DNA of 64,000 nucleotides from Blastocystis sp. Blastoise (Eukaryota; Protista; Bigyra: Opalinata): NCBI GenBank assembly GCA_039096225.1, contig JBBPEB010000021.1:372001-436000 (forward strand). Reading direction: 5' to 3'. Shown here one piece after another: positions 2,476 to 50,845 of this stretch. Position numbers and translations under genes: made by a program. The number at the start of each line of letters is the position of its first letter. Positions within the stretch are counted from its first letter, which is position 1. The notes below the pieces were generated by a model. The model had not been told where the DNA came from and did no database searches. It was given only the letters and a program-made list of their open reading frames with translations.

Positions 2476-2548
2476 GGCCGGTTAGTGTAGTGGTTATCAC
2501 GTTCGCTTTACACGCGAAAGGTCCCGGGTTCGACCCCCGGATTGACCA
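2476..2548 (+). tRNA. tRNA-Val(UAC)
   Basis: GGCCGGT...ATTGACCA acceptor stem with one mismatch, D-loop TAGTGG, anticodon arm TTCGC-TTTACAC-GCGAA, T-loop GGTTCGACCCC, downstream T-run. Confidence 0.93.
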
Positions 2549-3081
2549 TTTATTTTTCTTATTATCATATTAACTTTTTATTTACATTAATAATTATTTA
2601 CTACATTTTTATTGGGGTAATCAACGATATTCAAATAAAATATATAATAAGATGCACTGAAATGCATATATATATATCCTTGCACAGTTTTTTCTCTCTA
2701 CTAAGTAATTTGTCACTCGAGCAAATTATTTGATTACTATAACAGCCAATCATGTTCAAAAGATCCAAAACACTATAATATTTCACAAGACACTGGTGAG
2801 ACAATTAATCTGTAATAATATTACTCATTTTAATGAAAATATTAAAATGATGTTTATCATTTTTTTAGAGACACCGATAATTTGTGGCTTTTATATATAT
2901 ATCTATATATATATGTATATATAACATTTAGCATATTTCCAAAGAATTGAAGCAAAAATTATTATGTATTCTTTTTGTAACTTAGCAAAATTACTAGTAC
3001 AATTAATACAATTGTAATCAATTTGATGAAAAATAATCATTTTCGATCACTTCTAGTATTTTCTCTGAAAAAAGTATCAAC

Positions 3082-3111
3082 TAGAGCGGTACAAAAGTTT
3101 CGAAAAAATTG
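3082..3111 (-). mobile_element. Degenerate 3' terminus of the hAT copy at 28726-30672, separated from it by the PLV insertion
   Basis: TAGAGCGGTACAAAAGTTTCGAAAAAATTG matches the hAT terminus TAGAGCGGTTCAAAAGTTGCGACAA seen at 32756 and, inverted, at 35751. Confidence 0.8.
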
Positions 3112-3830: not shown

Positions 3831-3878
3831 TTCTAGAACATTCTAGAACATTCTCGAAACTTCTAGAACATTCGAGAA
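3831..3878. promoter_or_regulatory. Heat-shock-element-like array (10 alternating nGAAn/nTTCn units)
   Basis: TTCtaGAAcaTTCtaGAAcaTTCtcGAAacTTCtaGAAcaTTCgaGAA, 45 bp upstream of the ORF at 3924. Confidence 0.7.
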
Positions 3879-3923: not shown

Positions 3924-4091
3924 ATGGATTCCCCAAAGCAATTTGCTCCAGATTATAAAGAAGGTACTTGGAAACCTTATGGAAATTTTGAAGTTGATGA
4001 ATTAAATGATAGTGATTCTGAAGTGGATACTATTAAAACTGAAAGTGAAGATGATTATGAAGATTATATAAAAAAATTTATTGATTTTTAA
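3924..4091 (+). CDS. Small acidic viral protein (55 aa), unknown function
   Basis: ATG...TAA reading MDSPKQFAPDYKEGTWKPYGNFEVDELNDSDSE...IDF. Not in the supplied ORF track. Preceded by an HSE array. Confidence 0.55.
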   Translation: MDSPKQFAPDYKEGTWKPYGNFEVDELNDSDSEVDTIKTESEDDYEDYIKKFIDF

Positions 4092-8126: not shown

Positions 8127-9164
8127 TTAATGAAAAGAAGGATAACCAGAATAATGTTTTTTATTTAAATAAGGATTGAAAATGCGTCGTTGACTATCTT
8201 GTATGATTTGATCTTGTATGATTTGTAAGATGGATTCTTTAGGTTTATCTTTTTCATCTCGTTCAATACCTTTCAATGAGACTTCTTCTTCAATAGGTAA
8301 AAACTTCTTCATTTTCTTTTCATATGTAGATACATGTTCATTAGAACGTTTAATACCACTACCTGATACTTCACCTTGTTCTTCTCGTTTCTCTTTTTCA
8401 CTATCTTCTTCTGTCCATTTCCGTTTCTTTACCATCTTATATACATTCTGTTTACTACCACAATCAGGATTAGTCCATATTGTTAAATCATCACTACCTT
8501 GTTTTAACATAAAGAATTGATGTGGATCATTCATTAATTCTTCATCTGTAAGAATTTCATTTAGATTTGATGGCATAATCTTTAATTTATCTGGTAAGAA
8601 TCCAGGATCACGTTTTAAGATTTGACTATTAATAAAGAAATGAGATACTTGACTTAATATAGATTGATTGGTAACATCTGTATGACTTTGAAGACATATA
8701 ATAGCATTCTGTTTATAATGACGACCTTTAGATAATATAGATACAATCAATTGTTTGGTTTGTCTAGATAATGGATAGATATCATCCAATACAATGAAAT
8801 TATGTTCTGGTAATTTATATGTATTGACTAATTCATCAACAGTTTTAATCTTTTTAAATTTATCATCTACAGAATCATACCATTTATAATCAATTCCAGC
8901 ATGTTCACAAATATCTTGAAAGGATGTATAACATTCATTCTTATTGGATGCATCAGGACAAATTACTGTGACTTGTTTATATTTATTTTTAAGATCCATA
9001 GAACATAAGAGGTTCACAGTTAAGAAAGATTTTCCTGAGAATGTTCTTGCAATAATCAATATGAATTTTGATTCATATGTTTTATGATGGGATTTTCCAT
9101 ATTTAAATTCTAAGACTCCACATCCTTTATGTGTTTCTTTTAATGGATTTATTTTATTCACCAT
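8127..9164 (-). CDS. A32-like (FtsK/HerA) genome-packaging ATPase
   Basis: Walker A ARTFSGKS, Walker B FIVLDD, A32-type motif LSKGRHYKQNAIICLQS. Confidence 0.9.
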   Translation of the reverse strand: MVNKINPLKETHKGCGVLEFKYGKSHHKTYESKFILIIARTFSGKSFLTVNLLCSMDLKNKYKQVTVICPDASNKNECYTSFQDICEHAGIDYKWYDSVDDKFKKIKTVDELVNTYKLPEHNFIVLDDIYPLSRQTKQLIVSILSKGRHYKQNAIICLQSHTDVTNQSILSQVSHFFINSQILKRDPGFLPDKLKIMPSNLNEILTDEELMNDPHQFFMLKQGSDDLTIWTNPDCGSKQNVYKMVKKRKWTEEDSEKEKREEQGEVSGSGIKRSNEHVSTYEKKMKKFLPIEEEVSLKGIERDEKDKPKESILQIIQDQIIQDSQRRIFNPYLNKKHYSGYPSFH

Positions 9165-9997: not shown

Positions 9998-11221
9998 TTA
10001 ATTGGTAGCACCATCTCTAACAAATTTAACAAATATAAAATGAGCATATAAAGTATAAGGACCAGTAACAGTTCCACCAGTATATTCAGTTAATAATGAG
10101 ATATTAACTTCACAACCACTACGCGTATTGACATCAACAACACTTGAAATAGGGAATATATAAATAGGTTGTTCATACCACTTTTCACCATTTAAAGGAG
10201 ATTGAGGATGACTATTACATCTCCAAGTATTATAAAGCATAGCATTAGGAATAATTTGTGATGGATTCGTTGTTTTATACGTAGTAGGGAAATCCGTCTT
10301 TGGTAAGATATTTTGACCACCAATTTGGAATTGACATGATTTTAATAATTCAGTTTTAATAGGAATCATGCTCTTCTCTTGATTTGTGAAGTATAACATA
10401 CAATAATCAGGTACGAAAACAACACTTCTATTGGATAAGAATTGTTGTGGAGTTGGTGTACCTGATACTGATGCTTGTGAATAAACAGGTGTAGTGAATG
10501 CAGATATCTGACAATTATTAGGAATACATTTAATCAAAGCACGTGGATCATTACCAAAATTAATATCATAAATTTGTTGAAGATGAATATAAACACGATC
10601 AAATTTCAATGCAGTGATTACAGTGGTACCGGTAAATAGATTCTTTAAATAATTTGTAACGAATTGCATCTTCAAAGATTTTACTTTAATAGCACAATCA
10701 AATGTACCAAGACCAGTAATAAGAGATAAAGGAATAATAACTTGAGCTTTTTCTTTCATTTCCATTCCAGCAATACTACTCAACGTGTTATTATATAAGC
10801 ATTCTGTCATACTATACATAGATTTATCAATTTCATCTTTACTTAATTCTTTAATAGTAACAAATTTTCTTGCTTTACTGGATTCAATAGAAGATTCAGA
10901 ATAATTAATAAGAATATCTTGACCCGTAGGAGATACAAACGTAAGATCTGTAGTAATCTTATCAATAATACTATAGATATTAGAATGTTGTACAACTGAA
11001 GATGTTGAATTTTTGTCTCTAGTACCAGTAATATTGAAATTCAGTTCTAAGAATGAATTACTGAAATCAATATAAGGGCTATCCACTGAATTATATAAGA
11101 ATTCAAATGGATAAGGTTGATTTAATAAATCTTGACTTGTAGAAACTAGAATAGGAATTTGTACAGGTTTAATAGTTTGATTTGCCTTTGAAGGTAAGAA
11201 TTGTCTTGGGAATCCTTCCAT
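9998..11221 (-). CDS. Putative double jelly-roll major capsid protein 1 (407 aa)
   Basis: Beta-rich sequence of MCP size, N-terminal YIDFSNSFLELNFNI, IIPL motif, position in the morphogenetic cluster. Confidence 0.65.
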   Translation of the reverse strand: MEGFPRQFLPSKANQTIKPVQIPILVSTSQDLLNQPYPFEFLYNSVDSPYIDFSNSFLELNFNITGTRDKNSTSSVVQHSNIYSIIDKITTDLTFVSPTGQDILINYSESSIESSKARKFVTIKELSKDEIDKSMYSMTECLYNNTLSSIAGMEMKEKAQVIIPLSLITGLGTFDCAIKVKSLKMQFVTNYLKNLFTGTTVITALKFDRVYIHLQQIYDINFGNDPRALIKCIPNNCQISAFTTPVYSQASVSGTPTPQQFLSNRSVVFVPDYCMLYFTNQEKSMIPIKTELLKSCQFQIGGQNILPKTDFPTTYKTTNPSQIIPNAMLYNTWRCNSHPQSPLNGEKWYEQPIYIFPISSVVDVNTRSGCEVNISLLTEYTGGTVTGPYTLYAHFIFVKFVRDGATN

Positions 11222-15975: not shown

Positions 15976-17772
15976 ATGCAATCAACAGGTTATTCAGATA
16001 AAGATTGTGAAGAATTCTTTACAAATTGTATAGATCAATTATTACATTGGAAGAAAATACAATTATCAACAAGTATAAATTGGAAGAAATGGATCAAGAC
16101 AATATGTAAGAAATTTCGTAATGAAGAACGAATTCAAATAGATGATATGGAAGAACCATTCTTTTGTGTAGAAGTGTTAACAGATCCATTTCAATTTCAA
16201 AATGTTATGCAACATACACAAACAGAAGCTCCTGGACAACAAGGTGGATTATCCAATACTACAGTAGCTAATTATATGCAAATGATTACTTATATAATGA
16301 AGAATATATCTATTTGTACAGATGATGAAGATATCATTAATTATAAAGCATTTACTCCACAAAATATAAAGAAATGGGAACATTTATGGGGTTCTTTACA
16401 AATTGATGCTACTTATTCAAGACATTATGAAATCACTCAGAAAATTATTAATTGTGAAGCTGATTGGGGAGAAATCATTAATATCACCAAAAAGAATTAT
16501 TTAGAGAATCCTAATGATTTATATTATGTGAATAGTTATTTATTAGTTTTAACTTATGATACATTATGTGCTCGTAATGATTATAATGATTGTGTAATCT
16601 ATACTCGTGGTCAACAAATTCCTTTATCGTTAAGAAGAACAACTAATTATATTGATTTAAATACTTTAACTATTCATGTGAATGATACAAAGAATCGATT
16701 TGAAATTGGTAAGAATGAATATCCTACTTATCAATATTTATCAGAAGAATATTTAAATGTCCTAGCTAGATCCTTACGTTTATTTCCAAGACATTATTTA
16801 TTTGTTACTGAGAATGGTGGTAAAGTACGTGATTTGAAATTTGGTGATGAATATATAAAACCACATTTAGGATGGATTTATAAAACACAACAGAATAATT
16901 CTTTAATTAATGGTTGTGATATTATAAGACATTTATTTGCTCAATATTATTATAGATTATCAAGAGAAGCACAATTCCAACATAATGATTCAGAACATGA
17001 ATCTAAAGGTGTAGAACTCTTTGAAAATTCGATTATGAAGATGTTACATAGTCAATCAACACATATGGAAAATTATATATCTCCTTATTTATCTTCTCAT
17101 TCAACTAAATTGCAAGATTTAGATAATAAAACAAGAACATTTCATATTGATATGAATAATATTACTTATACAAGAGAAATTAATCAATTGAATAAATTAT
17201 TATTTTTATGTAAACGATTTAATGATCGTATAGAACAATATGAAGAAGACTATGAAGATGTATTTGGTAAAGAGAATTTCAATATGAAATCAGAATCGAT
17301 ATTAAGTAGTCTAGAACAATATTCATCAGATAATGATACCATAATGATTACATTAAGATATTATAAAGATCTATTAAAGCATCATTATCCTGATAAAAAC
17401 GATTTAGAAAATGAATTACCTGTAGGATGTTCATTAGAATCTGAAGAAGTTCCAGATGATTCTAGAGATCGTTATAATCGTTTTATACGTAATAAACAAT
17501 TATTACCTGATCATTTACATAATAATACAACAGATTCAGAATTAACGAATACTCAAGCATCTCTTATGCAACAGAATACTCAAGATGAAAACTCTACACC
17601 TATAGTTATGAATAATTCAGATACTTATGCATTACGTAGTCTTTCTACTATGCCTCCTTTAGAACCTATTCATCGTGGTCATGGTTTATTGAAAAAACAT
17701 AAAAGTAATGCATTCTTTAAAGTCAAAGTCCCTAAAAAGCATTTTCATGGAATTCAATTTAAATTTTATTAA
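15976..17772 (+). CDS. Tyrosine recombinase 1 (598 aa)
   Basis: Ordered catalytic motifs: R in CARNDY, K in NDTKN, DIIRHLFA, H...Y in MLHSQSTHMENY. Confidence 0.75.
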   Translation: MQSTGYSDKDCEEFFTNCIDQLLHWKKIQLSTSINWKKWIKTICKKFRNEERIQIDDMEEPFFCVEVLTDPFQFQNVMQHTQTEAPGQQGGLSNTTVANYMQMITYIMKNISICTDDEDIINYKAFTPQNIKKWEHLWGSLQIDATYSRHYEITQKIINCEADWGEIINITKKNYLENPNDLYYVNSYLLVLTYDTLCARNDYNDCVIYTRGQQIPLSLRRTTNYIDLNTLTIHVNDTKNRFEIGKNEYPTYQYLSEEYLNVLARSLRLFPRHYLFVTENGGKVRDLKFGDEYIKPHLGWIYKTQQNNSLINGCDIIRHLFAQYYYRLSREAQFQHNDSEHESKGVELFENSIMKMLHSQSTHMENYISPYLSSHSTKLQDLDNKTRTFHIDMNNITYTREINQLNKLLFLCKRFNDRIEQYEEDYEDVFGKENFNMKSESILSSLEQYSSDNDTIMITLRYYKDLLKHHYPDKNDLENELPVGCSLESEEVPDDSRDRYNRFIRNKQLLPDHLHNNTTDSELTNTQASLMQQNTQDENSTPIVMNNSDTYALRSLSTMPPLEPIHRGHGLLKKHKSNAFFKVKVPKKHFHGIQFKFY

Positions 17773-17816: not shown

Positions 17817-20800
17817 TTAATTTGGTATAGCATATAAAGTATTATCTATTAAAATTCGTTTTGTTGATGACGTATTATGATATTGATCTTCACTATAAAC
17901 AATTTCTTCTTTCTTAGATAAACAATTGGATAAACAGAATAAATCTGTATCCACACAATTATTATAAGTATTATCAATCATTAAACCACAAATACCAATA
18001 GCATTCCCTCCCTTATAGAAATTTGAAGTATGTTTTCTATGAATATTCACAATATCTATAGAATTGAATGTATCTTTACTACTTAAACAACCAAATAAAG
18101 CATTTGTAAATTTATCTAAATCTTTCTTAATCGTAAATTGATTATTATTATTCACTTTCTTATAACTATTAAAAATATCTTCAATAGTAACTACATTCAA
18201 ATAATAAGGATCTATAGTAATATGGTTATCAACAAAAGATTTCAAATCATATCCTTCTGTACTACGATCAAAGAATCGTTTCTTACATTCACTTATATGA
18301 TATTCATTATCTAATTCATGCATATCTAATTGCATACTAGAATAGAAATAATTACTTACTAGATAACTAAATATAATAGAACGATTCTGATAGAATTTAT
18401 CGGATAGAGTATAATCCATTTCATAATGATTGGGTTTCAATCTCTTTTCTACTGTCTGTTGACGTTTCGGTAAATTATGATCTACATAATCTTCATATAA
18501 ATTAGCATTACCAGGAGGGAAATAACGACAACATGAAGGTAAGAAACAAACTCTTCTTTCAATAGGTCCAGCATTCACAGCAGTAGGTTGAATATTACTT
18601 GTCATAAATAAAGTACCCGTGAAATGAACTTTTGTAAATATATTACTGAATAATTTACGAGCACTAGCACCTTCTTTCTTTTCTGCTATTTCTTTAAATA
18701 CTTTAGAAGAGAATGGATTAAATGTTTTCTTTCTACCAGTAACATCTTCTTCTATTAATTCATTCATATAATACATAGTCTTATTAGACATATCTACAAT
18801 CTTAGGAGCTATAGATGTTTCTTCTAAATTATCTGGATTTACTATAATACATTGATTACTACCTACAATACGAGATATTAAATCAGTTGTTATTGTTTTA
18901 CCATTACTACCTGTACTACCATATAATATATAAGAAACTGTTTTCTGAGTATTGACATAGAAAGCAGTGGTTAAGATACGTAACATAATACTTTCATATT
19001 TCTTATCGAATTCACAATATCTTGCAATGTGTTGTTCAAATAATTGGATAATATCTTTCTGTTCATTATTTATATTCCAACTTACATTAAATTCAGTATC
19101 AATTAATAAATCTTCAAACACCATATCTTCTTTATGATATGGTTGGATATAATATTGTCTAGGATCTTCTTCTGTAGATTCTTTTGGATATAAATAACCA
19201 AGTTGTGTATAGATAACACGTTCTTTATGAACCATATACGTATCTAAATATTCTTTATAAGATTTACCATAAGTCTTCAAATAACGATTCAACCATTCTT
19301 TATAATGATATTCATTAGTAACAGAAGCAGACATTATTTTATCAACTATTTTTTGATGTTGTTCATTCTCTTTAGAATATAATCTTGATAATTTGAATTT
19401 CTCTACAATCGATTTCATAAATGTAGTTATTTTGGTTTCAAAGAAATTAATATCATAATTATTCTTACAACGTCTTAAGATATTATATTCATCAAATGTA
19501 TATAAGATAAAATTATCTTTATCTAATATAATAGAAACAATTTCATTAAATTCTAATAATTGAAATAACATAACTAATGTTTGTGAATCTACAAGATTAA
19601 AGGATTGAATACATTCTAAAATAGACATAAATATGAAATCATTATCATCATCTTTATTAAATAATTTATTATCCATTAATATCTTCAAAATATAATTATT
19701 CGATAAATGAGTAGGATCAACTTGTATATGATTCCATGTAGATTCAATTACATCATCACTTCGATCATGACCATAACGTAATGAATAATTTTTAAATAAT
19801 TCTAATCCTCTTGTTGTATTACAAATCTGTTTTGCTGCACAACATAATTTATACCAAGTATTATGAGATTCAAAATAATTCATATCTTCAATAGAACCAA
19901 TCAATAATAAATATCGTTCTAATAAAGCTTCTTTAGATGCTGTAGTATCCAATATAGTATCTGTAGAAATCAACATAGGAATATCTTTAATATCTTGTAT
20001 AGAACATAATATAGTACGTGAACAATTATTTAATCTTGCATAATAACGTTTATAACGTGAATATTGTTTTAATTTATAAAAGATAATAGGATTAATAATA
20101 TCACTTATAAGATCATCTTCATTCTTATAATTCAATAATGTTTTAAAATAATAATGTTCATCGATTTCGCCTTCTATTTTCTTCCATGTTTTATTGGTAT
20201 ATTCTTCATATAATTTATAAGTAGATGGAGAATTATCTTTACTACAACCAAGAAACATACAACCATTATTCTTTCTGGGTTTACCAATAACATTATAATC
20301 AATGAATTCTTTTATATCTAAATTATTCATTTTACATAAATCAACCAATTTGGTATTCAGAATCATACTATTATATAAGAAAAATAAATAATCACCATTT
20401 ACAAACCAATTCGTATATATATGAATTCCCCATGAATAATGTATTTCATTATGAACTGTCTTCTTATTCACTTCTTTCTTTGTATACACAAGCGAAATAA
20501 ATTCTTGATTATAATAATGAATACAATGATTACATATTTCTTCTATAAATTCATGAATAAAAGAATCTGTTAGAAAAGAAAAATCATTTGATATTTGGTG
20601 ATAATCTAAATCAAACCATAATCTTCTATAATTAGTTGATGTATTACAAGGAGTACAATCAATATAATGTAATAATTCTTTTGGATTTTGGTAATTAGTA
20701 AATAGACTTTTATAAAATGGTAATGGATTTGGTATAATAATTTCACTATGATTATCTTTTGAATTATCATGATTAAAGGAACCAAAAGTATAAACAAAAT

Positions 20801-20819
20801 GAATTTGTGAATTTTCCAT
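17817..20819 (-). CDS. Primase-helicase (AEP + PriCT-2 + D5-like SF3 helicase), 1000 aa
   Basis: AEP motifs WFDLD and GIHIY; PriCT-2-like WYKLCCAAK...GLELFKNYS; Walker A YGSTGSNGKT; Walker B YYMNE; motif C FMTSN. Confidence 0.88.
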   Translation of the reverse strand: MENSQIHFVYTFGSFNHDNSKDNHSEIIIPNPLPFYKSLFTNYQNPKELLHYIDCTPCNTSTNYRRLWFDLDYHQISNDFSFLTDSFIHEFIEEICNHCIHYYNQEFISLVYTKKEVNKKTVHNEIHYSWGIHIYTNWFVNGDYLFFLYNSMILNTKLVDLCKMNNLDIKEFIDYNVIGKPRKNNGCMFLGCSKDNSPSTYKLYEEYTNKTWKKIEGEIDEHYYFKTLLNYKNEDDLISDIINPIIFYKLKQYSRYKRYYARLNNCSRTILCSIQDIKDIPMLISTDTILDTTASKEALLERYLLLIGSIEDMNYFESHNTWYKLCCAAKQICNTTRGLELFKNYSLRYGHDRSDDVIESTWNHIQVDPTHLSNNYILKILMDNKLFNKDDDNDFIFMSILECIQSFNLVDSQTLVMLFQLLEFNEIVSIILDKDNFILYTFDEYNILRRCKNNYDINFFETKITTFMKSIVEKFKLSRLYSKENEQHQKIVDKIMSASVTNEYHYKEWLNRYLKTYGKSYKEYLDTYMVHKERVIYTQLGYLYPKESTEEDPRQYYIQPYHKEDMVFEDLLIDTEFNVSWNINNEQKDIIQLFEQHIARYCEFDKKYESIMLRILTTAFYVNTQKTVSYILYGSTGSNGKTITTDLISRIVGSNQCIIVNPDNLEETSIAPKIVDMSNKTMYYMNELIEEDVTGRKKTFNPFSSKVFKEIAEKKEGASARKLFSNIFTKVHFTGTLFMTSNIQPTAVNAGPIERRVCFLPSCCRYFPPGNANLYEDYVDHNLPKRQQTVEKRLKPNHYEMDYTLSDKFYQNRSIIFSYLVSNYFYSSMQLDMHELDNEYHISECKKRFFDRSTEGYDLKSFVDNHITIDPYYLNVVTIEDIFNSYKKVNNNNQFTIKKDLDKFTNALFGCLSSKDTFNSIDIVNIHRKHTSNFYKGGNAIGICGLMIDNTYNNCVDTDLFCLSNCLSKKEEIVYSEDQYHNTSSTKRILIDNTLYAIPN

Positions 20820-22187: not shown

Positions 22188-22715
22188 ATGGAAATTCCTG
22201 ATAGTCTTTCTGCCAGTTTATCCCCTTTCGGTCAAGCCATGATATCCCCCTTGTTGAATCAATTTGAAAATAGTGTTTCTGCAAATCCTATGGCTTTACC
22301 CAATGATAATGATTTCTGTTTTAATTCGCGTGACGAAATCATATTTGAAGATCCACCTCAAGAAATTCATCCAATCAATGATGTTTACGTATCTAAAAAT
22401 CCAGATAGATATCATTCGGTTAACAATCAACCAATACAATTTCAAGATCAAGTAAATACAAATCCTGATAAGCAAGCATTATTATTTACAAATGAGGAGT
22501 TAACAAATATATCCAGTCAATTCGAATCTTTATTTCAAACTATGGAAACGGCTGATAATATATTAAATAGTATTTATTGTACTGTTGATCATTTAAAAAC
22601 AAAGATTGAAAGTCAGAAACAAGATTTGAAACAGATTCATGATGATTCTAAAGAAATTGTTTCATTATTATCCGAATATTCTATTCCTTCTATGTCTGAA
22701 ATATTTGATCATTAA
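22188..22715 (+). CDS. PLV hypothetical acidic protein (175 aa) with C-terminal coiled coil
   Basis: ATG ORF followed by TGTTTTGTTT at ~22740. Confidence 0.65.
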   Translation: MEIPDSLSASLSPFGQAMISPLLNQFENSVSANPMALPNDNDFCFNSRDEIIFEDPPQEIHPINDVYVSKNPDRYHSVNNQPIQFQDQVNTNPDKQALLFTNEELTNISSQFESLFQTMETADNILNSIYCTVDHLKTKIESQKQDLKQIHDDSKEIVSLLSEYSIPSMSEIFDH

Positions 22716-22805
22716 TTATTTTTATTTAATTAATTATTTTGTTTTGTTTATTTTTTTTTAAATTAATTACACAAAGTTTAAATGGAGAATAGAATAGTTT
22801 CAAAT

Positions 22806-22913
22806 AGAATTCTTGAATGGTCTAATGGATCTATTAAAGAAATATGTAACTACAGTATCATGGTTCGATTCCGTTAAAATGTTTCCATTAGATTATTCAA
22901 GTGTTCTTTTTTT
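22806..22913 (+). ncRNA. Putative Pol III-transcribed hairpin RNA (VA-RNA-like)
   Basis: A-box TGGTCTAATGG 22818-22828, B-box GGTTCGATTCC 22862-22872, 18-bp stem 22812-22829/22884-22901, T7 terminator 22907-22913. Confidence 0.6.
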
Positions 22914-22959
22914 CTAGAACCTTCTCGAACCTTCTAGAACATTCTCGAACCTTCTCGAA
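22912..22959. promoter_or_regulatory. HSE-like array (10 units) upstream of the putative SSB
   Basis: TTCtaGAAccTTCtcGAAccTTCtaGAAcaTTCtcGAAccTTCtcGAA. Confidence 0.7.
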
Positions 22960-23035
22960 AATTGATTCATTTGAAAAGAATATCGTAAAATATTAGTATT
23001 AAAATACTTATATTTTTACTAAATACTTAACTAAA

Positions 23036-23629
23036 ATGTCTTCAACTGAATTTAAGAAACCTACTATTCTTGATACTTCTAACTTTAATTTACAATGGGA
23101 TGACACCAAAGAAAATGCTGTTCTTTTAAATAATAATCATCGTGTATGTATTTCTACTGATGCTACACCATGTTTATTTGGTTATATTGTTACACGTGAT
23201 AAATGGACTTTAATAACGATTGAAGATGATAATCAAGTATTCTTAACTGCTTATAAAGAACTTTATCGTAAATTATGTGAATTATGTCCTGATGGTGATA
23301 TTGTTAATTTTGTACGTATGGATAATGGTAAATATAAGATTACAATTAAAGTACCTATTAATGCATCGAAGAATGTTACTATTGATATTACTGATAAAAG
23401 AGATAAGAAGATTAATATCGGTAAAGATCCTAAGTTAACTTACGAAGAAATACGTGAAAAGTATATTCCACCAAATACGTTATGTAAAGTATTATTTACA
23501 ATACATGGTATTCATCGTTATAATAACAAGTATTATATTGGTTTATATGCACGTTCTATTAAAGTATTCGATAAATCTACGAAGAATACTAACAGCAATG
23601 ATACTATTATTGATTTAACTAAATTATAA
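23036..23629 (+). CDS. Putative OB-fold single-stranded DNA-binding protein (197 aa)
   Basis: C-terminal LCKVLFTIHGIHRYNNKYYIGLYARSIKV resembles the beta-strand pattern of viral SSBs; size fits. Confidence 0.5.
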   Translation: MSSTEFKKPTILDTSNFNLQWDDTKENAVLLNNNHRVCISTDATPCLFGYIVTRDKWTLITIEDDNQVFLTAYKELYRKLCELCPDGDIVNFVRMDNGKYKITIKVPINASKNVTIDITDKRDKKINIGKDPKLTYEEIREKYIPPNTLCKVLFTIHGIHRYNNKYYIGLYARSIKVFDKSTKNTNSNDTIIDLTKL

Positions 23630-25998: not shown

Positions 25999-26342
25999 AA
26001 CATTCTAGAATATTCTAGAATCTTTAATTTATTATATTAATATTTTGTATAATTAATTTGTTTTGTTTAATATTTAATACTATTATGACAAAGAAACGAT
26101 TTGGCAATTACTACTTAGATCGTAGTGCAGAAACTTTAGAGAATGTAAATGAAATACTGTCAGTTATTGAAATTGTTCTTATTATTATATATATTTTACT
26201 TTACTTTTATATGTCCAAGAAACGTTCTAGAACATTCTAGAACATTCATTTTGAACTGGCTCTATTTGTAGAATCTTTAATTTATTATATTAGTGTTTTA
26301 TATAATTAATTTGTTTTGTTTAATCATTGGTTAATTTAAATA

Positions 26343-26790: not shown

Positions 26791-27726
26791 TTATTCAATT
26801 AATTTTTTAAATAAATTATTATTTTCTAAAGATACATAAGAATTAATATGTGTATAATCATTATGACATAAAGCAGAAGCAGAATTTTCTATATCTTGGA
26901 ATGTATTGGTTGTAGTTGTAGCATATAATTTTCTTAATGCATTAATGGTTAATTTTGGATGGATTTGTTTTAAATGCTTATTCACAAACCAATCAAATGC
27001 TTTAGTAGTAAATCCAGTTCTTACAGAAGATTCAAATATAAATTTACGATTTGGATTTCTTTTTAAGAGTAATTCTAGATCTTCAATCAATTCTTTTGGT
27101 GCATCTAATTGAATTGTAGAGTATTTACCAGCAGTTTTATAATCATTTAATAGAATAGAACCAGTATGTTTCTCTTTATCATAAACAATATAATTCTTAT
27201 GAATAGCTGGATCAATAGTATCTTCTGGTGATAGAATGAATAATTGAGCATAATCAGCACGAGCAGGAGGAAGATAGGAGTAAAAATCTAATATTAATCG
27301 TAATGGATTATAATTTTCTAATTTATCGTGATATTCATGTAAATATGGAGTCGTAATACCATCTTTAATAAGATCTTGAATTAAAGTACGTTTCTTATTA
27401 TCCAGATATTTTTCATACATTGAATTGATAATCACATAAAATTCACACCATTTATTCAAAATACCTTCTTTATTTAATGAAGAAACATTACGTATAATAA
27501 ATAATATCAATTCACATAACGATTTCATTGGACTAATTTTGATTTTACGTTCATTTACCATATAATCCATGAATGAATAAGGATTCTTTAAGAATTCTGA
27601 GAACTTTTTAAATGGTAATGGGAAAATATATAAATTGAAATAATTAGTTAAACGTTTTTTCCAAATATCAGAATAATTTGAATTCTGTATAACCAAAAGA
27701 TACTTGTCATAATTTGTATTTTTCAT
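26791..27726 (-). CDS. Tyrosine recombinase 2 (~311 aa)
   Basis: R in PPARADY, K in DYKTAGKY, TINALRKLYAT, H...Y in LCHNDYTHINSY. First ATG at 27726. Confidence 0.88.
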   Translation of the reverse strand: MKNTNYDKYLLVIQNSNYSDIWKKRLTNYFNLYIFPLPFKKFSEFLKNPYSFMDYMVNERKIKISPMKSLCELILFIIRNVSSLNKEGILNKWCEFYVIINSMYEKYLDNKKRTLIQDLIKDGITTPYLHEYHDKLENYNPLRLILDFYSYLPPARADYAQLFILSPEDTIDPAIHKNYIVYDKEKHTGSILLNDYKTAGKYSTIQLDAPKELIEDLELLLKRNPNRKFIFESSVRTGFTTKAFDWFVNKHLKQIHPKLTINALRKLYATTTTNTFQDIENSASALCHNDYTHINSYVSLENNNLFKKLIE

Positions 27727-27814
27727 TGATTTTCTCAAGTAGAATCTCTAAAACTTCTATTTTCAAAAGAATAATACATAAGAAAATCAAAATAAAATAT
27801 CTAAGATTCTCATG

Positions 27815-28844: not shown

Positions 28845-30672
28845 TCAAGATTGACTCTGAAACATTACTAAAAGTAGATAAATTAACAAAAAGTAGAAAA
28901 AAACATCACCAAAAAAATCAGATAAAACACTATTTGAAATGAAATTAGAATTATAATCGTTATTTTCACTTTCATTTGCTATTGATTCATTATCATCTGC
29001 AATTGTTATTGAAGAATCATTAATTGTAGTATCTATTTCATCTTCAATAATCATTGAATCATTTTGAATTGAAACATTATCTGTTTGTGGATTCATATAA
29101 AAAAATAAATCTCTAAATAAATTATCATCAGAATAACTAAATTTATTCTTTGTAAATAAAATATTCATAAAAGAGAAAGATCTTTCTACACTAACAGTAG
29201 TAGAAGGTAATTGAAGAATGAAAGGAATTATTTTAGAAATAGAAGGAATTTGTTTAAGAAGAGGAAAATAGAATTTTATCATTTGTTCTTTACTTATCAT
29301 ATTTTGATGAAAACATTCATTTTATTTCTTTTCATTATCAATAAAATCTTTCATTTTTGAAACACATAATAAATAATCTTTCTTCTCAATATTTGAAAAT
29401 TCAGATGAAGTGAAAGAAGGAAATGAAGAAGACATTAAGAAAGGATTGAAATATTTTACTTCATTATAAAATATCATTTGTTTCTTATTCATTGTTTTGA
29501 TTTCTTTCAATTTTAATAATGTATTCGTAAAACCTATATAATATAAATAAATAATAATAAATAATAAATATACTTTTCTTATATTCTTGAATAAATGAAG
29601 AATGAACATTTGATAAATTATTTTCTTTGCATATTTCATTCACTATCATAATTATATTATCTTTTGAATTCTTCAATTCTTCTTCAATTTCATCTATCAA
29701 ACTAGAAACATTACAACATTGAAAATTATCATTGGATAATAATTTTAATATTTCTTCAAACATTATTCCACTCTTCAAGAGAATCGACATTTCGATATGT
29801 AAAGAAGAAGATAATTGATTATCTTGAAGAATATTCAATATTTCTTTATCTTTATCACTTAACATATCCAATGTTTCTAAATATTCATAGAATGATTTCA
29901 AATATTTAAAATGTTTCAAAATATATCTTAAAGATTTATACCAAGATATCCATCGTGTTTCGACATATGAAAAGAAAGAAGAAGAAGGAATATTATTTAT
30001 CTTTAAAAAGGATAACCATAAATCATTTTTCTTTCTAAAGAAACGAAATGATGAATTAATGAGATTAATAAATGATTTAGTATTAATAAAACCATCTTTT
30101 AGTTTTTCAGCTACTAAATTAATCATATGCATAAAACATCCACAATAAATTCCATCACTAAAAATCGATTCATAATTATTACCAGCATTTCTCATAGTAT
30201 TACAATTATCAGTGTGAAACGATTTAAATTGTTTTCTTTTAATGTTCCATTCTTCTAATGTATCTTGAATGATAGAAAGATAATTATTCGATTTTTGATT
30301 TTCCATTCTTTTCAAGTTTATTAAGTAGAAAGGTTCATTCAAATTGAAAGTATTCAATCTTCTTACGATTATTGATAAATAATTAGAACCAGCATCTGAG
30401 GTAGAAGAATCACATAGAACAGCTAGAGGACATTTATCTAAACTCATTTTTACATATTGAAGACGTTCATCATACAATTTAGGTATAATTCGTTTTTGAA
30501 TAGTATTATAACAAGGCATATTATTATTATTCATTTCAAATATATTTTTCAATTTCATTCTAAATTGAGGTTTCTTAAATTTATTAATAGGAATACATTC
30601 TTCCAAGAATAATTCTATTAATTTTTCAAATCTTATATAATTCACATTAGATTCAATAATTCTATTTTTAAT
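28845..30672 (-). pseudogene. 5'-truncated hAT transposase pseudogene
   Basis: Nearly identical to 33709-35543. GAA>TAA nonsense at 29322-29324, diverged C-terminus, truncated at 30672 by another element end. Confidence 0.88.
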
Positions 30673-32755: not shown

Positions 32756-35751
32756 TAGAGCGGTTCAAAAGTTGCGACAAATCGAGTTGCGACAAATTTC
32801 ACAACTTGTCGCAACTTGTCGCAATTTGTCGCAACTTTTTTTACCCCGAGTATATCGAGAGTCCCGTGATTATTTTATTAATTTGGCAACTAATTAAGAC
32901 TTGTTTAAAAAAAGAATTCAGTGTCGCAATTTGTCACAACTTTGTCACAACTTTTCATTTAAACATATATAGACCTATTTTACATTTATATAAAATATGA
33001 TAATTTATGAAATTCATAGTGGTGAATATAATAAGCATCAAGAATTATTTAAATACTTAATTCAAACAAAGAAAAACATTAAAAATACTTTTCAAAAAAT
33101 CATGAATATTTTTTTTACAGTCAAAAAAATGAAATATTCACGGGAGATTATTAATTTTCAGTCATTTTAAAACGTATAAATAATTGAAAGAAATCATCTC
33201 ATTTTCATTAATTTATATTTCTATATAAATCGTTCTTTCAATATAGATTCATTCATCTATTCATAAAGTCTTCTTTAATACTCATTTCTATCAATAAAAT
33301 ATCATTCTAAGAATCAAAAGAAGTATATATATGTATTCATCATTCTTAATTATCTTTAGATATGGTTAAAAAAACAATGAAACAATCTAATAATCATAAA
33401 GTGAAAAGAAAAGAAAAGAAGAAGTCTTCATCTACTAAGAAAAGTGAGAATGTTAGAACGAGAATCTACAAAATGAATCCAATAAGTCGTTTAACAAAAA
33501 TAAAATTATCATCAAGTATGAATGAAGAAGAAAAGAAATGTTTTATATCAAAGAATAATAATCTTCGTTGTATTTATTGTAATTGTATTGTAGATCATAA
33601 AAGATTATCTTCTATTAATAAACATCTCAATACTGATATGCATATTTCTAATATGAATTCATTCATGAAAGAAAAGTCTTCTACTGTACCTTCTATAAAG
33701 AAAACTAATATTAAAAATAGAATTATTGAATCTAATGTGAATTATATAAGATTTGAAAAATTGATAGAATTATTCTTAGAAGAATGTATTCCTATTAATA
33801 AATTTAAGAAACCTCAATTTAGAATGAAATTGAAAAATATATTTGAAATGAATAATAATCATATGCCTTGTTATAATACTATTCAAAAACGAATTATTCC
33901 TAAATTATATGATGAACGTATTCAATATGTAAAAATGAATTTAGATAAATGTCCTCTAGCTGTTCTATGTGATTCTTCTACCTCAGATGCTGGTTCTAAT
34001 TATTTATCGATAATCGTAAGAAGATTGAATACTTTCAATTTGAATGAACCTTTCTACTTAATAAACTTGAAAAGAATGGAAAATCAAAAATCGAATAATT
34101 ATCTTTCTATCATTCAAGATACATTAGAAGAATGGAATATTAAAAGAAAACAATTCAAATCGTTTCACACAGATAACTGTAATACTATGAGAAATGCTGG
34201 TAATAATTATGAATCGATTTTTAGTGATGGAATTTATTGTGGATGTTTTATGCATATGATTAATCTAGTAGCTGAAAAACTAAAAGATGGTTTTATTAAT
34301 ACTAAATCATTTATTAATCTTATTAATTCATCATTTCGTTTCTTTAGAAAGAAAAATGATTTATGGTTATCCTTTTTAAAGATAAATAATATTCCTTCTT
34401 CTTCTTTCTTTTCTTATGTTGAAACACGATGGATATCTTGGTATAAATCATTAAGATATATTTTGAAACATTTTAAATATTTGAAATCATTCTATGAATA
34501 TTTAGAAACATTGGATATGTTAAGTGATAAAGATAAAGAAATATTGAATATTCTTCAAGATAATCAATTATCTTCTTCTTTACATATCGAAATGTCGATT
34601 CTCTTGAAGAGTGGAATAATGTTTGAAGAAATATTAAAATTATTATCCAATGATAATTTTCAATGTTGTAATGTTTCTAGTTTGATAGATGAAATTGAAG
34701 AAGAATTGAAGAATTCAAAAGATAATATAATTATGATAGTGAATGAAATATGCAAAGAAAATAATTTATCAAATGTTCATTCTTCATTTATTCAAGAATA
34801 TAAGAAAAGTATATTTATTATTTATTATTATTTATTTATATTAAATAGGTTTTACGAATACATTATTAAAATTGAAAGAAATCAAAACAATGAATAAGAA
34901 ACAAATGATATTTTATAATGAAGTAAAACATTTCAATCCTTTCTTGATGACTCCTTCATTTCCTTCTTTTACTTTATCTGAATTTTTAAATATAGAAAAG
35001 AAAGATTATTTATTATGTGTTTCAAAATTGAAAGATTTTATAGATAATGAGAAGAAAGAAAATGAATGTTTTCCTCAAAACATGGTAAGTAAAGAACAAA
35101 TGATAAAATTTTATTTTCCTCTTCTTAAACAAATTCCTTCTATTTCTAAAATAATTCCTTTCATTCTTCAATTACCTTCTACTACTGTTAGTGTAGAAAG
35201 ATCTTTCTCTTTTATGAATATTTTATTTACAAAGAATAAATTTGGTTATTCTGATGATAATTTATTTAGAGATTTATTTTTCTATATGAATCCACAAACA
35301 GATACTATTTCAATTCAAAATGATTCAATGATTATTGAAGATGAAATAGATACTACAATTAATGATTCTTCCATGACAATCATAGATGATAATGAAATAT
35401 TATCAAATGAAAGTGAAAATGAAGAAAAAAATGCGAATTTCAATTCAAATAGTGTTTTATCTGATTCTCTTGATGATATTTTATCAATTTCTTTTGATAA
35501 TTTATCTACTTTCAGTAATGTTTCAGAGATCAATCTTGATTAAACTATTTCTTAACTTATTTATAATTTATATTTTATATGCTTTATTTATGTTTTCTTT
35601 ATTAAAAATTAGTTTTGTTTATAAAAATAGTGTTTAAAATGTGTCGCAACTTGTCGCAACTTGTCGCAACTTTGTCGCAACTTGTCGCAACTTTTTCGCA
35701 ACTTTTGTCGCAACTTGTCGCAACTTTTGTCGCAACTTGTGAACCGCTCTA
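32756..35751 (+). mobile_element. Complete autonomous hAT DNA transposon (~3.0 kb)
   Basis: TIRs TAGAGCGGTTCA...TGAACCGCTCTA, subterminal TTGTCGCAAC arrays, perfect 8-bp TSD ATCTTATC (32748-32755 and 35752-35759). Confidence 0.95.
33362..35543 (+). CDS. hAT transposase, two exons (intron 34809-34848), ~713 aa
   Basis: N-terminal Zn finger CIYC...H...H; DDE motifs LCDSST, TDNCNTM, SVERSFS; CFMH; TRW. Removing the 40-nt GT-AG intron joins the two ORFs in frame. Confidence 0.9.

Positions 35752-39789: not shown

Positions 39790-43650
<3,861 letters not shown>

Positions 43651-46654: not shown

Positions 46655-50845
<4,191 letters not shown>

Follow-up and report, generated by a model that had tools for sequence, protein, structure and literature searches.

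Endogenous virus surrounding the locus

The window analysed here, that is, the whole 64,000-nucleotide (64-kb) stretch of DNA, contains a Polinton-like/MELD-type endogenous virus of 25.6 kb at positions 3108 to 28724, which is bounded by terminal inverted repeats (TIRs; 436 nt at 99%, continuing to ~3910 and ~27783). Its double-jelly-roll major capsid protein (MCP; 9998-11221, minus strand) was recognized by its predicted fold: the model has a pLDDT of 73, the best PDB match is the Sputnik MCP (E 6e-12), and among viral proteins the fold comes closest to one of a MELD virus (TM 0.68). A primase-helicase is encoded at 17817-20819 (minus strand; primase family match) and a packaging ATPase at 8127-9164 (terminase-like P-loop match, E 1.5e-10). 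The TIRs, double-jelly-roll MCP, packaging ATPase and replicative helicase by which Polinton-like/MELD viruses are recognized are all present, and the initial annotation, which had placed a small RNA gene inside a virus, was correct in this respect. Such viruses have been described as 15-30-kb TIR-bounded insertions with an MCP, an ATPase and a primase-helicase (PMC10120064), and the element shares its TIRs, MCP, ATPase and primase-helicase with MELD/Polinton-like viruses that combine a primase-helicase with a tyrosine recombinase. The Blastocystis MELD virus treated in passages of PMC8502044 has PolB and an integrase, whereas this element has no recognized PolB. A link to adenoviruses through their kinship with Polintons, which the initial annotation had drawn, is weak, since no protein-primed polymerase was recognized among the ORFs of the element and the best capsid fold is that of a MELD virus; the virus is of the primase-helicase Polinton-like/MELD type and has no close adenovirus kin.

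The MCP and the helicase both have 100% matches among database proteins. Of the 19 members of the helicase cluster, 18 are named Blastocystis sp. Blastoise, and the assembly of this organism appears to hold roughly 20 proviral copies. At least three divergent sister families (47-51%) were seen in the same assembly. The MCP has 87 relatives, most of which are ~56-63% identical to it and lie on ENA/Logan contigs that reach ~27 kb, relatives of the helicase on ENA/Logan contigs show 42-45% identity, and the MCP profile search gave 11 representatives. DNA of relatives was not found in IMG/VR (queried with the SSB, the helicase, an MCP alignment and proteins of two relatives), in JGI metagenomes and GTDB genomes (helicase and MCP alignments) or among the INPHARED phages, and the virus family looks undescribed. 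The low GC of the window would fit the tortoise-clade Blastocystis isolates covered in passages of PMC10690189.

Several observations concern the surroundings and the remaining genes of the virus. The left flank (3080-3107) is similar to the subterminal repeat found in the DNA transposons nearby (family D13), and the virus may have inserted into this repeat. Directly to its right lies a transposase-like gene in two inverted copies that are 97% identical (28900-30672 and 33710-35482), and the host pyruvate:ferredoxin oxidoreductase is present as two diverged inverted copies (39790-42810, minus strand; 48395-50845, plus strand) that are 79-91% alike in blocks. Inspection by eye found tyrosine-recombinase-like motifs (R..DY, R-H/R-K, H...Y) in the ORFs 15976-17772 (plus strand) and 26791-27738 (minus strand); neither ORF has a Pfam or PHROG match, and the two show no BLAST similarity to each other.

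Genes and signals flanking the unit

The ORF upstream of the predicted RNA gene (22188-22715, plus strand, 175 aa) has no assigned function. It is followed at 22739-22749 (plus strand) by the motif TTGTTTTGTTT, a probable 3'-end signal of this ORF that resembles the Blastocystis TGTTTGTT element. A TGTTTTGTT-type motif lies at most 90 nt past the stop codon in 14 of 18 ORFs, convergent ends included, and is missing from the divergent gap; its positions are 4120, 5697, 9192, 9940, 15943, 17788, 21106, 22739, 23665, 26058 and 26311, and the strict 11-mer occurs only twice in the window outside the element. We infer the 3'-end role of this motif from its position. In Blastocystis the TGTTTGTT element, the polyadenylation element of human-type isolates, sits 5 bases after the poly(A) site, according to passages of PMC5608401, and it is not enriched in tortoise-clade genes, according to passages of PMC10690189. 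The virus possibly derives from a different lineage; alternatively, the host may have a variant 3'-end motif. The upstream mRNA likely ends ~70 nt before the stem described below.

On the other side, a five-unit TTCnnGAAnn array at 22912-22961, which resembles the consensus of heat-shock elements (HSE), lies upstream of a probable gene for a single-stranded DNA-binding protein (SSB; 23036-23629, plus strand, 197 aa). The naming of this ORF is a weak lead: it has feature matches of 0.94-0.95 to viral clusters in which 10-18% of the members carry DUF5871/DUF2738, families that presumably have an SSB role, and its recognition score is under the reliable level. The HSE-driven SSB promoter that had been proposed to adjoin the RNA gene corresponds to this array, which merges with the T-run of the unit. 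Seven TTCnnGAAnn arrays were seen in the element (at 3831, 20911, 20988, 22912, 26003, 26225 and 27815); they precede the helicase, the probable SSB, recombinase-like and small ORFs and not the genes of the capsid block, a placement that suggests stress-induced early genes. Small ORFs of ~50-55 codons at ~3924-4091 and ~26085-26240 (both plus strand) have, by eye, an HSE-like array before them and a 3'-end motif after them; one of the two is acidic and one has a hydrophobic stretch.

Because the predicted unit sits between the probable 3'-end motif of the upstream gene and the HSE-like array, it looks self-standing and resembles a separate transcription unit. Nine assembled contigs from four sequencing runs reach parts of both flanking ORFs: contigs of run X1, which may be DNA, cover 22389-22621 and 23033-23600, and a contig of run X2 covers 22283-22462; positions 22632-22997 were uncovered, which is uninformative for a 105-nt non-polyadenylated RNA.

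Anatomy of the predicted Pol III unit

The predicted type-2 Pol III transcription unit spans 22806-22913 on the plus strand and would produce a panhandle RNA of ~105 nt, whose 5' end is probably A22806 or A22802 and whose 3' end would lie in the T-run. The A-box TGGTCTAATGG (22818-22828, plus strand) is located within the 5' arm of a terminal stem, and the B-box GGTTCGATTCC (22862-22872, plus strand) follows 44 nt after it. Both boxes fit the consensus sequences TRGYNNARNNG and GGTTCRANYCY (given in passages of PMC12498455). Their spacing falls within the 30-60 nt expected of such boxes at consensus and is identical to that of the host tRNA-Val gene in the window (2476-2548), so the positions and the tRNA-like spacing reported initially were right. 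A loose pattern, with the A-box 25-110 nt upstream, found only two A+B pairs in the 64 kb, this one and that of tRNA-Val, among 12 loose B-boxes; this pattern is not exhaustive and under-counts, since it missed a real host tRNA-Ser.

The terminal stem is formed on the plus strand by a 5' arm at 22806-22829 and a 3' arm at 22884-22907. The RNA fold reproduces the 18-bp pairing of 22812-22829 with 22884-22901, two G-U pairs included, which had been noticed by inspection, and the extension described with it: 22806-22810 pairs with 22903-22907, adding 5 pairs after one U-U mismatch and bringing the G-U pairs of the whole stem to three. Directly after the stem comes the Pol III terminator-like run of seven T's (T7; 22907-22913, plus strand) that had also been pointed out, whose final two T's also open the HSE-like array as its first TT. 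There is no T4 within 22802-22906, an observation that is weak alone, as 2407 of 5104 windows of the element are likewise without T4. The GC content of the unit is 30%, versus 2-11% in the plain short intergenic gaps of the virus.

The overlap of the T7 run with the first unit of the HSE-like array speaks for a DNA-level explanation, namely that occupancy by TFIIIC and Pol III keeps the site nucleosome-free and shields the array from silencing or read-through, the RNA being a by-product in which a stem replaces the cloverleaf for stability. tRNA genes have established barrier activity. However, the loose pattern finds no A+B pair at any of the six remaining HSE-like arrays of the element, and a barrier makes the 23-bp stem unnecessary. 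We consider this explanation unlikely. A role at the level of the RNA is favoured, because boxes and barrier alike could do without a stem, and the one present here spans precisely the predicted transcript, up to the terminator.

Chance expectation

In 300 dinucleotide shuffles of the element we found 0.07 A+B pairs and 0.01 A+B+T5 units per element, and in 60 shuffles 0.067 stems per element (at least 18 bp, at most two G-U pairs, span of at most 130). The box and stem patterns for these tests were picked after the site had been seen. Having both on the same ~100 nt would be expected about once in a million elements. Although this figure was obtained post hoc by rough multiplication and ignores the size of the whole scan, noise is a very unlikely source of the feature. 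It is the coincidence of boxes, stem and terminator, against expectations of 0.01 and 0.07 per element, that argues for a non-random feature at 22806-22913.

The boxes could still be accidental if the site served Pol II, either as a 31-codon ORF (22782-22877) or as a hairpin that stops transcription of the upstream gene. The distance from the 3'-end motif to the ATG at 22782 is ~42 nt, a spacing like that of the head-to-tail gene pairs of this virus, GC rises there, and the virus has other small ORFs. Against this, there is no 3'-end motif between the 31-codon ORF and the next promoter, a second ORF of 30 codons, a chance size, overlaps it, and perfect boxes followed by T7 (0.01 per element) are left unexplained, which makes an origin of this kind highly improbable.

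Anatomy and chance tests together give good support to the reading as a type-2 Pol III gene, and judged from its sequence the unit is probably a genuine one. The proposal of the initial annotation, a stand-alone Pol III gene encoding a panhandle RNA of ~105 nt, is upheld to this extent, the transcript itself being a prediction.

Predicted fold of the RNA

The 18-bp helix has pair probabilities of 0.98-1.0, and its two G-U pairs sit at G's of the A-box; for the whole terminal stem the probabilities are 0.90-1.0. The interior of 54 nt is weakly structured, with helices of only 4-5 bp at probabilities of 0.4-0.8. The minimum free energy (MFE) is -31.9 kcal/mol (z -6.11), and none of 200 shuffles was equally stable. 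For 22802-22913 the plus strand folds better than the minus strand by 8 kcal/mol (-32.3 and -24.3), and apart from the U-U all three non-Watson-Crick pairs are G-U on the plus strand; this bias would equally be expected from a constraint on the A-box combined with C-to-T decay of the 3' arm. Among stems with at least four G/C, this is the only one of at least 16 bp in the element that does not come from the HSE-like arrays or the terminal repeat. By energy the site ranks 25th of 4252 windows of 108 nt, and the 24 lower-energy ones are in the GC-rich terminal repeats or in the self-complementary HSE-like arrays.

Three other structural candidates were rejected. A DNA hairpin or MITE would fold at about -14 kcal/mol as DNA on either strand and leaves the boxes unexplained; the 'hairpin rule' of giant-virus polyadenylation does not agree with a loop of 54 nt in a virus that owns a 3'-end motif; and the Ro-binding helix of Y RNAs has a bulged C that is absent here.

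Relationship to tRNAs and known RNA families

When the unit is placed in tRNA register, pairs are possible at 2 of 7 positions of the acceptor stem, 1 of 4 of the D stem, 1 of 5 of the anticodon stem and 4 of 5 of the T-stem around the B-box; the same arms of the host tRNA-Val have 6, 3, 5 and 5 pairs. Identity to this tRNA is 27/73, three arms being lost. The two host tRNAs are all that ARAGORN, and Rfam at gathering score, recognize in the window, and the unit is called neither a tRNA nor a member of an Rfam family. Both the absence of a cloverleaf claimed from inspection and the exclusion of a known family recommended with it are borne out by these results. VA RNA gave no Rfam match at E of 10 or below, and vault RNA, Y RNA, EBER and TMER gave no Rfam match to the unit. 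The seven best Rfam matches include six MIR precursor models, the best having an E of 0.004 and a score of 24 bits, where the gathering score is 100.

A non-functional relic, in which a decayed tRNA gene or tRNA-derived SINE acquired by the virus underwent a recent local fold-back duplication, would account for the exact tRNA box spacing and the partial T-stem, and a recent template switch leaves a near-perfect inverted repeat of this sort. But the boxes are perfect despite the 27/73 identity and the loss of three arms, and that both should be perfect while the rest of the tRNA diverged suggests selection on the boxes. Within the 64-kb window there is no second copy among the A+B pairs, the unit has no poly(A) tail, and the other gaps of the virus are compact. 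On balance a relic is decidedly unlikely.

Comparison with known Pol III RNAs

Adenovirus VA RNAs are ~160 nt long, so that the predicted RNA, at ~105 nt, is ~55 nt shorter. Like VA RNA I and II, the unit is a viral gene with a single internal A- and B-box (VA RNAs as described in passages of PMC12498455), the RNA ends would be closed by a terminal stem with wobble pairs, and the virus that carries it has linear dsDNA and a capsid of the double-jelly-roll type. According to passages of PMC6599070, the terminal stem of VA-I, which holds three G-U pairs, targets Dicer and Exportin-5, inhibition of PKR resides in the apical stem and tetrastem, and a tRNA origin has been proposed for VA RNA. The same passages give an invariant GGGU/ACCC tetrastem, of which neither word occurs in 22806-22913. 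The unit further differs from VA RNA in having no apical stem of at least 20 bp and no pseudoknotted central domain, in its GC content, and in a protist host presumably without PKR. The initial description as VA-RNA-like thus holds as an analogy, through the terminal stem, and fails as a family assignment, given the length, the missing tetrastem and long apical stem and the lack of an Rfam match; by this analogy the unit would act like the terminal-stem module of VA RNA without being a member of the VA family.

Bovine leukaemia virus (BLV) offers a second comparison. Its Pol III pre-miRNAs are type-2 transcripts that are themselves hairpins with the A-box in the 5' arm, but the BLV B-boxes come after the terminator and the genes form a cluster of five, while the present unit stands alone, has its B-box inside the transcript and encloses an interior of 54 nt (BLV from passages of PMC12498455). 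A BLV-like microRNA precursor made by Pol III, from which Dicer would free guides of 21-24 nt against mRNAs of the host or of competing viruses, is suggested by several features: the fold-back can accommodate a 21-24-nt duplex, the 23-bp stem and its U-tail have the size of one Dicer product, the MIR models dominate the top Rfam matches, though far under the gathering score, and BLV is a precedent for type-2 Pol III transcripts that lead directly to Dicer (same passages). On the other hand, the 64-kb window holds no target, the best gapless complement off the locus being 17-18/24 in AT-rich DNA, the B-box is placed differently from that of BLV, and host RNAi would be needed, for which the genome papers searched gave no statement. 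We regard a microRNA precursor as improbable, if not strongly so.

EBER1/2 of EBV, the TMERs of MHV68 and the vault RNAs resemble the unit in being short type-2 Pol III RNAs. The EBERs are transcribed from latent genomes, and vault RNAs form panhandles of ~100 nt; the TMERs differ in that the unit has no cloverleaf and no downstream miRNA hairpins.

Predicted tRNA genes occur in some MELD viruses (figure legend in PMC8502044), and the passages of PMC8502044 consulted contain no description of a VA RNA or other non-tRNA Pol III RNA in MELD viruses. A term search of a 2026 framework preprint on Polinton-like viruses gave no mention of tRNA, non-coding or polymerase III, and among top-ranked titles, with few subscription journals covered, no literature was found that ties VA RNA or Pol III RNA to Polinton or Polinton-like viruses. 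A search of IMG/VR with an A-box/B-box/anti-A-box pattern returned five loci, all ordinary tRNA genes; a B-box/anti-A-box/T5 pattern returned 112 loci, which came from 15 of the collection's 64 parts; 27 of the loci had an upstream A-box, and a comparable uninterrupted stem was found in none of the 14 best-ranked of these 27, the top ones reading as tRNA genes. In four phage tRNA-like genes (L026, L036, L078 and L089) the 3' trailer pairs with 8-10 of 11 bases of the gene's own A-box region in the MFE fold, which may be chance or may hint at how a panhandle grows from a tRNA gene.

Proposed function

We rank a decoy function ahead of the microRNA precursor, the TFIIIC barrier, the relic and the Pol II feature. 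By analogy with VA RNA, the predicted RNA could be a short dsRNA mimic that serves as a decoy for Dicer/exportin-type silencing machinery of the host, a reading that we put forward tentatively, as somewhat short of an even chance. A decoy for a small-RNA pathway is preferred because the RNA has a terminal stem of the VA-I type without the PKR-inhibiting part, which suits a host without PKR. To our knowledge a stramenopile is not expected to have PKR or OAS, which are the main targets of VA RNA. No statement on Dicer or Argonaute in Blastocystis was found in the main texts of the genome papers searched, including PMC3129679 (for Argonaute, as far as the listing of that paper goes), and no title plainly devoted to these proteins in Blastocystis came up in the literature.

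The decoy might work as follows. TFIIIC would bind the A- and B-boxes of the unit, and Pol III would initiate 12-16 nt before the A-box and end in the T7 run. The ends of the RNA are computed to pair over 23 bp, leaving a short oligo-U tail, and the resulting stem would be too short and too broken by wobble pairs to look like long dsRNA, yet would be enough for one Dicer cut. The ~20 proviral copies could steadily produce the RNA as long as the HSE-type Pol II promoters that drive the replication genes await stress, and the RNA may, as the VA RNA terminal stem would suggest, blunt the silencing of the provirus. As to origin, a tRNA gene would have kept its boxes and T-arm, lost the cloverleaf and acquired a fold-back copy of its own 5' end.

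In its most complete form the proposal is that a hitherto undescribed family of Polinton-like viruses in a gut protist has, by independent evolution, turned a tRNA gene into a minimal analogue of VA RNA, and that ~20 silent proviruses use this Pol III 'latency' RNA to disarm RNA silencing in their unicellular host; this is more speculative than the decoy role and we offer it as a possibility. Non-tRNA viral Pol III RNAs that we have traced so far belong to animal viruses (adenovirus, herpesviruses and BLV). If the RNA is real, it would open a way to study antiviral RNA defence in Blastocystis, a subject undiscussed in the genome papers checked, and would provide a simple model for the origin of VA RNAs from tRNA; the Blastocystis host is culturable, and ~20 copies together with many relatives of 23-27 kb are available in public assemblies. 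If the proposal is true, it would demonstrate a route by which VA RNAs could arise from tRNA, and Pol III counter-defence RNAs would extend from vertebrate viruses to the viruses of protists.
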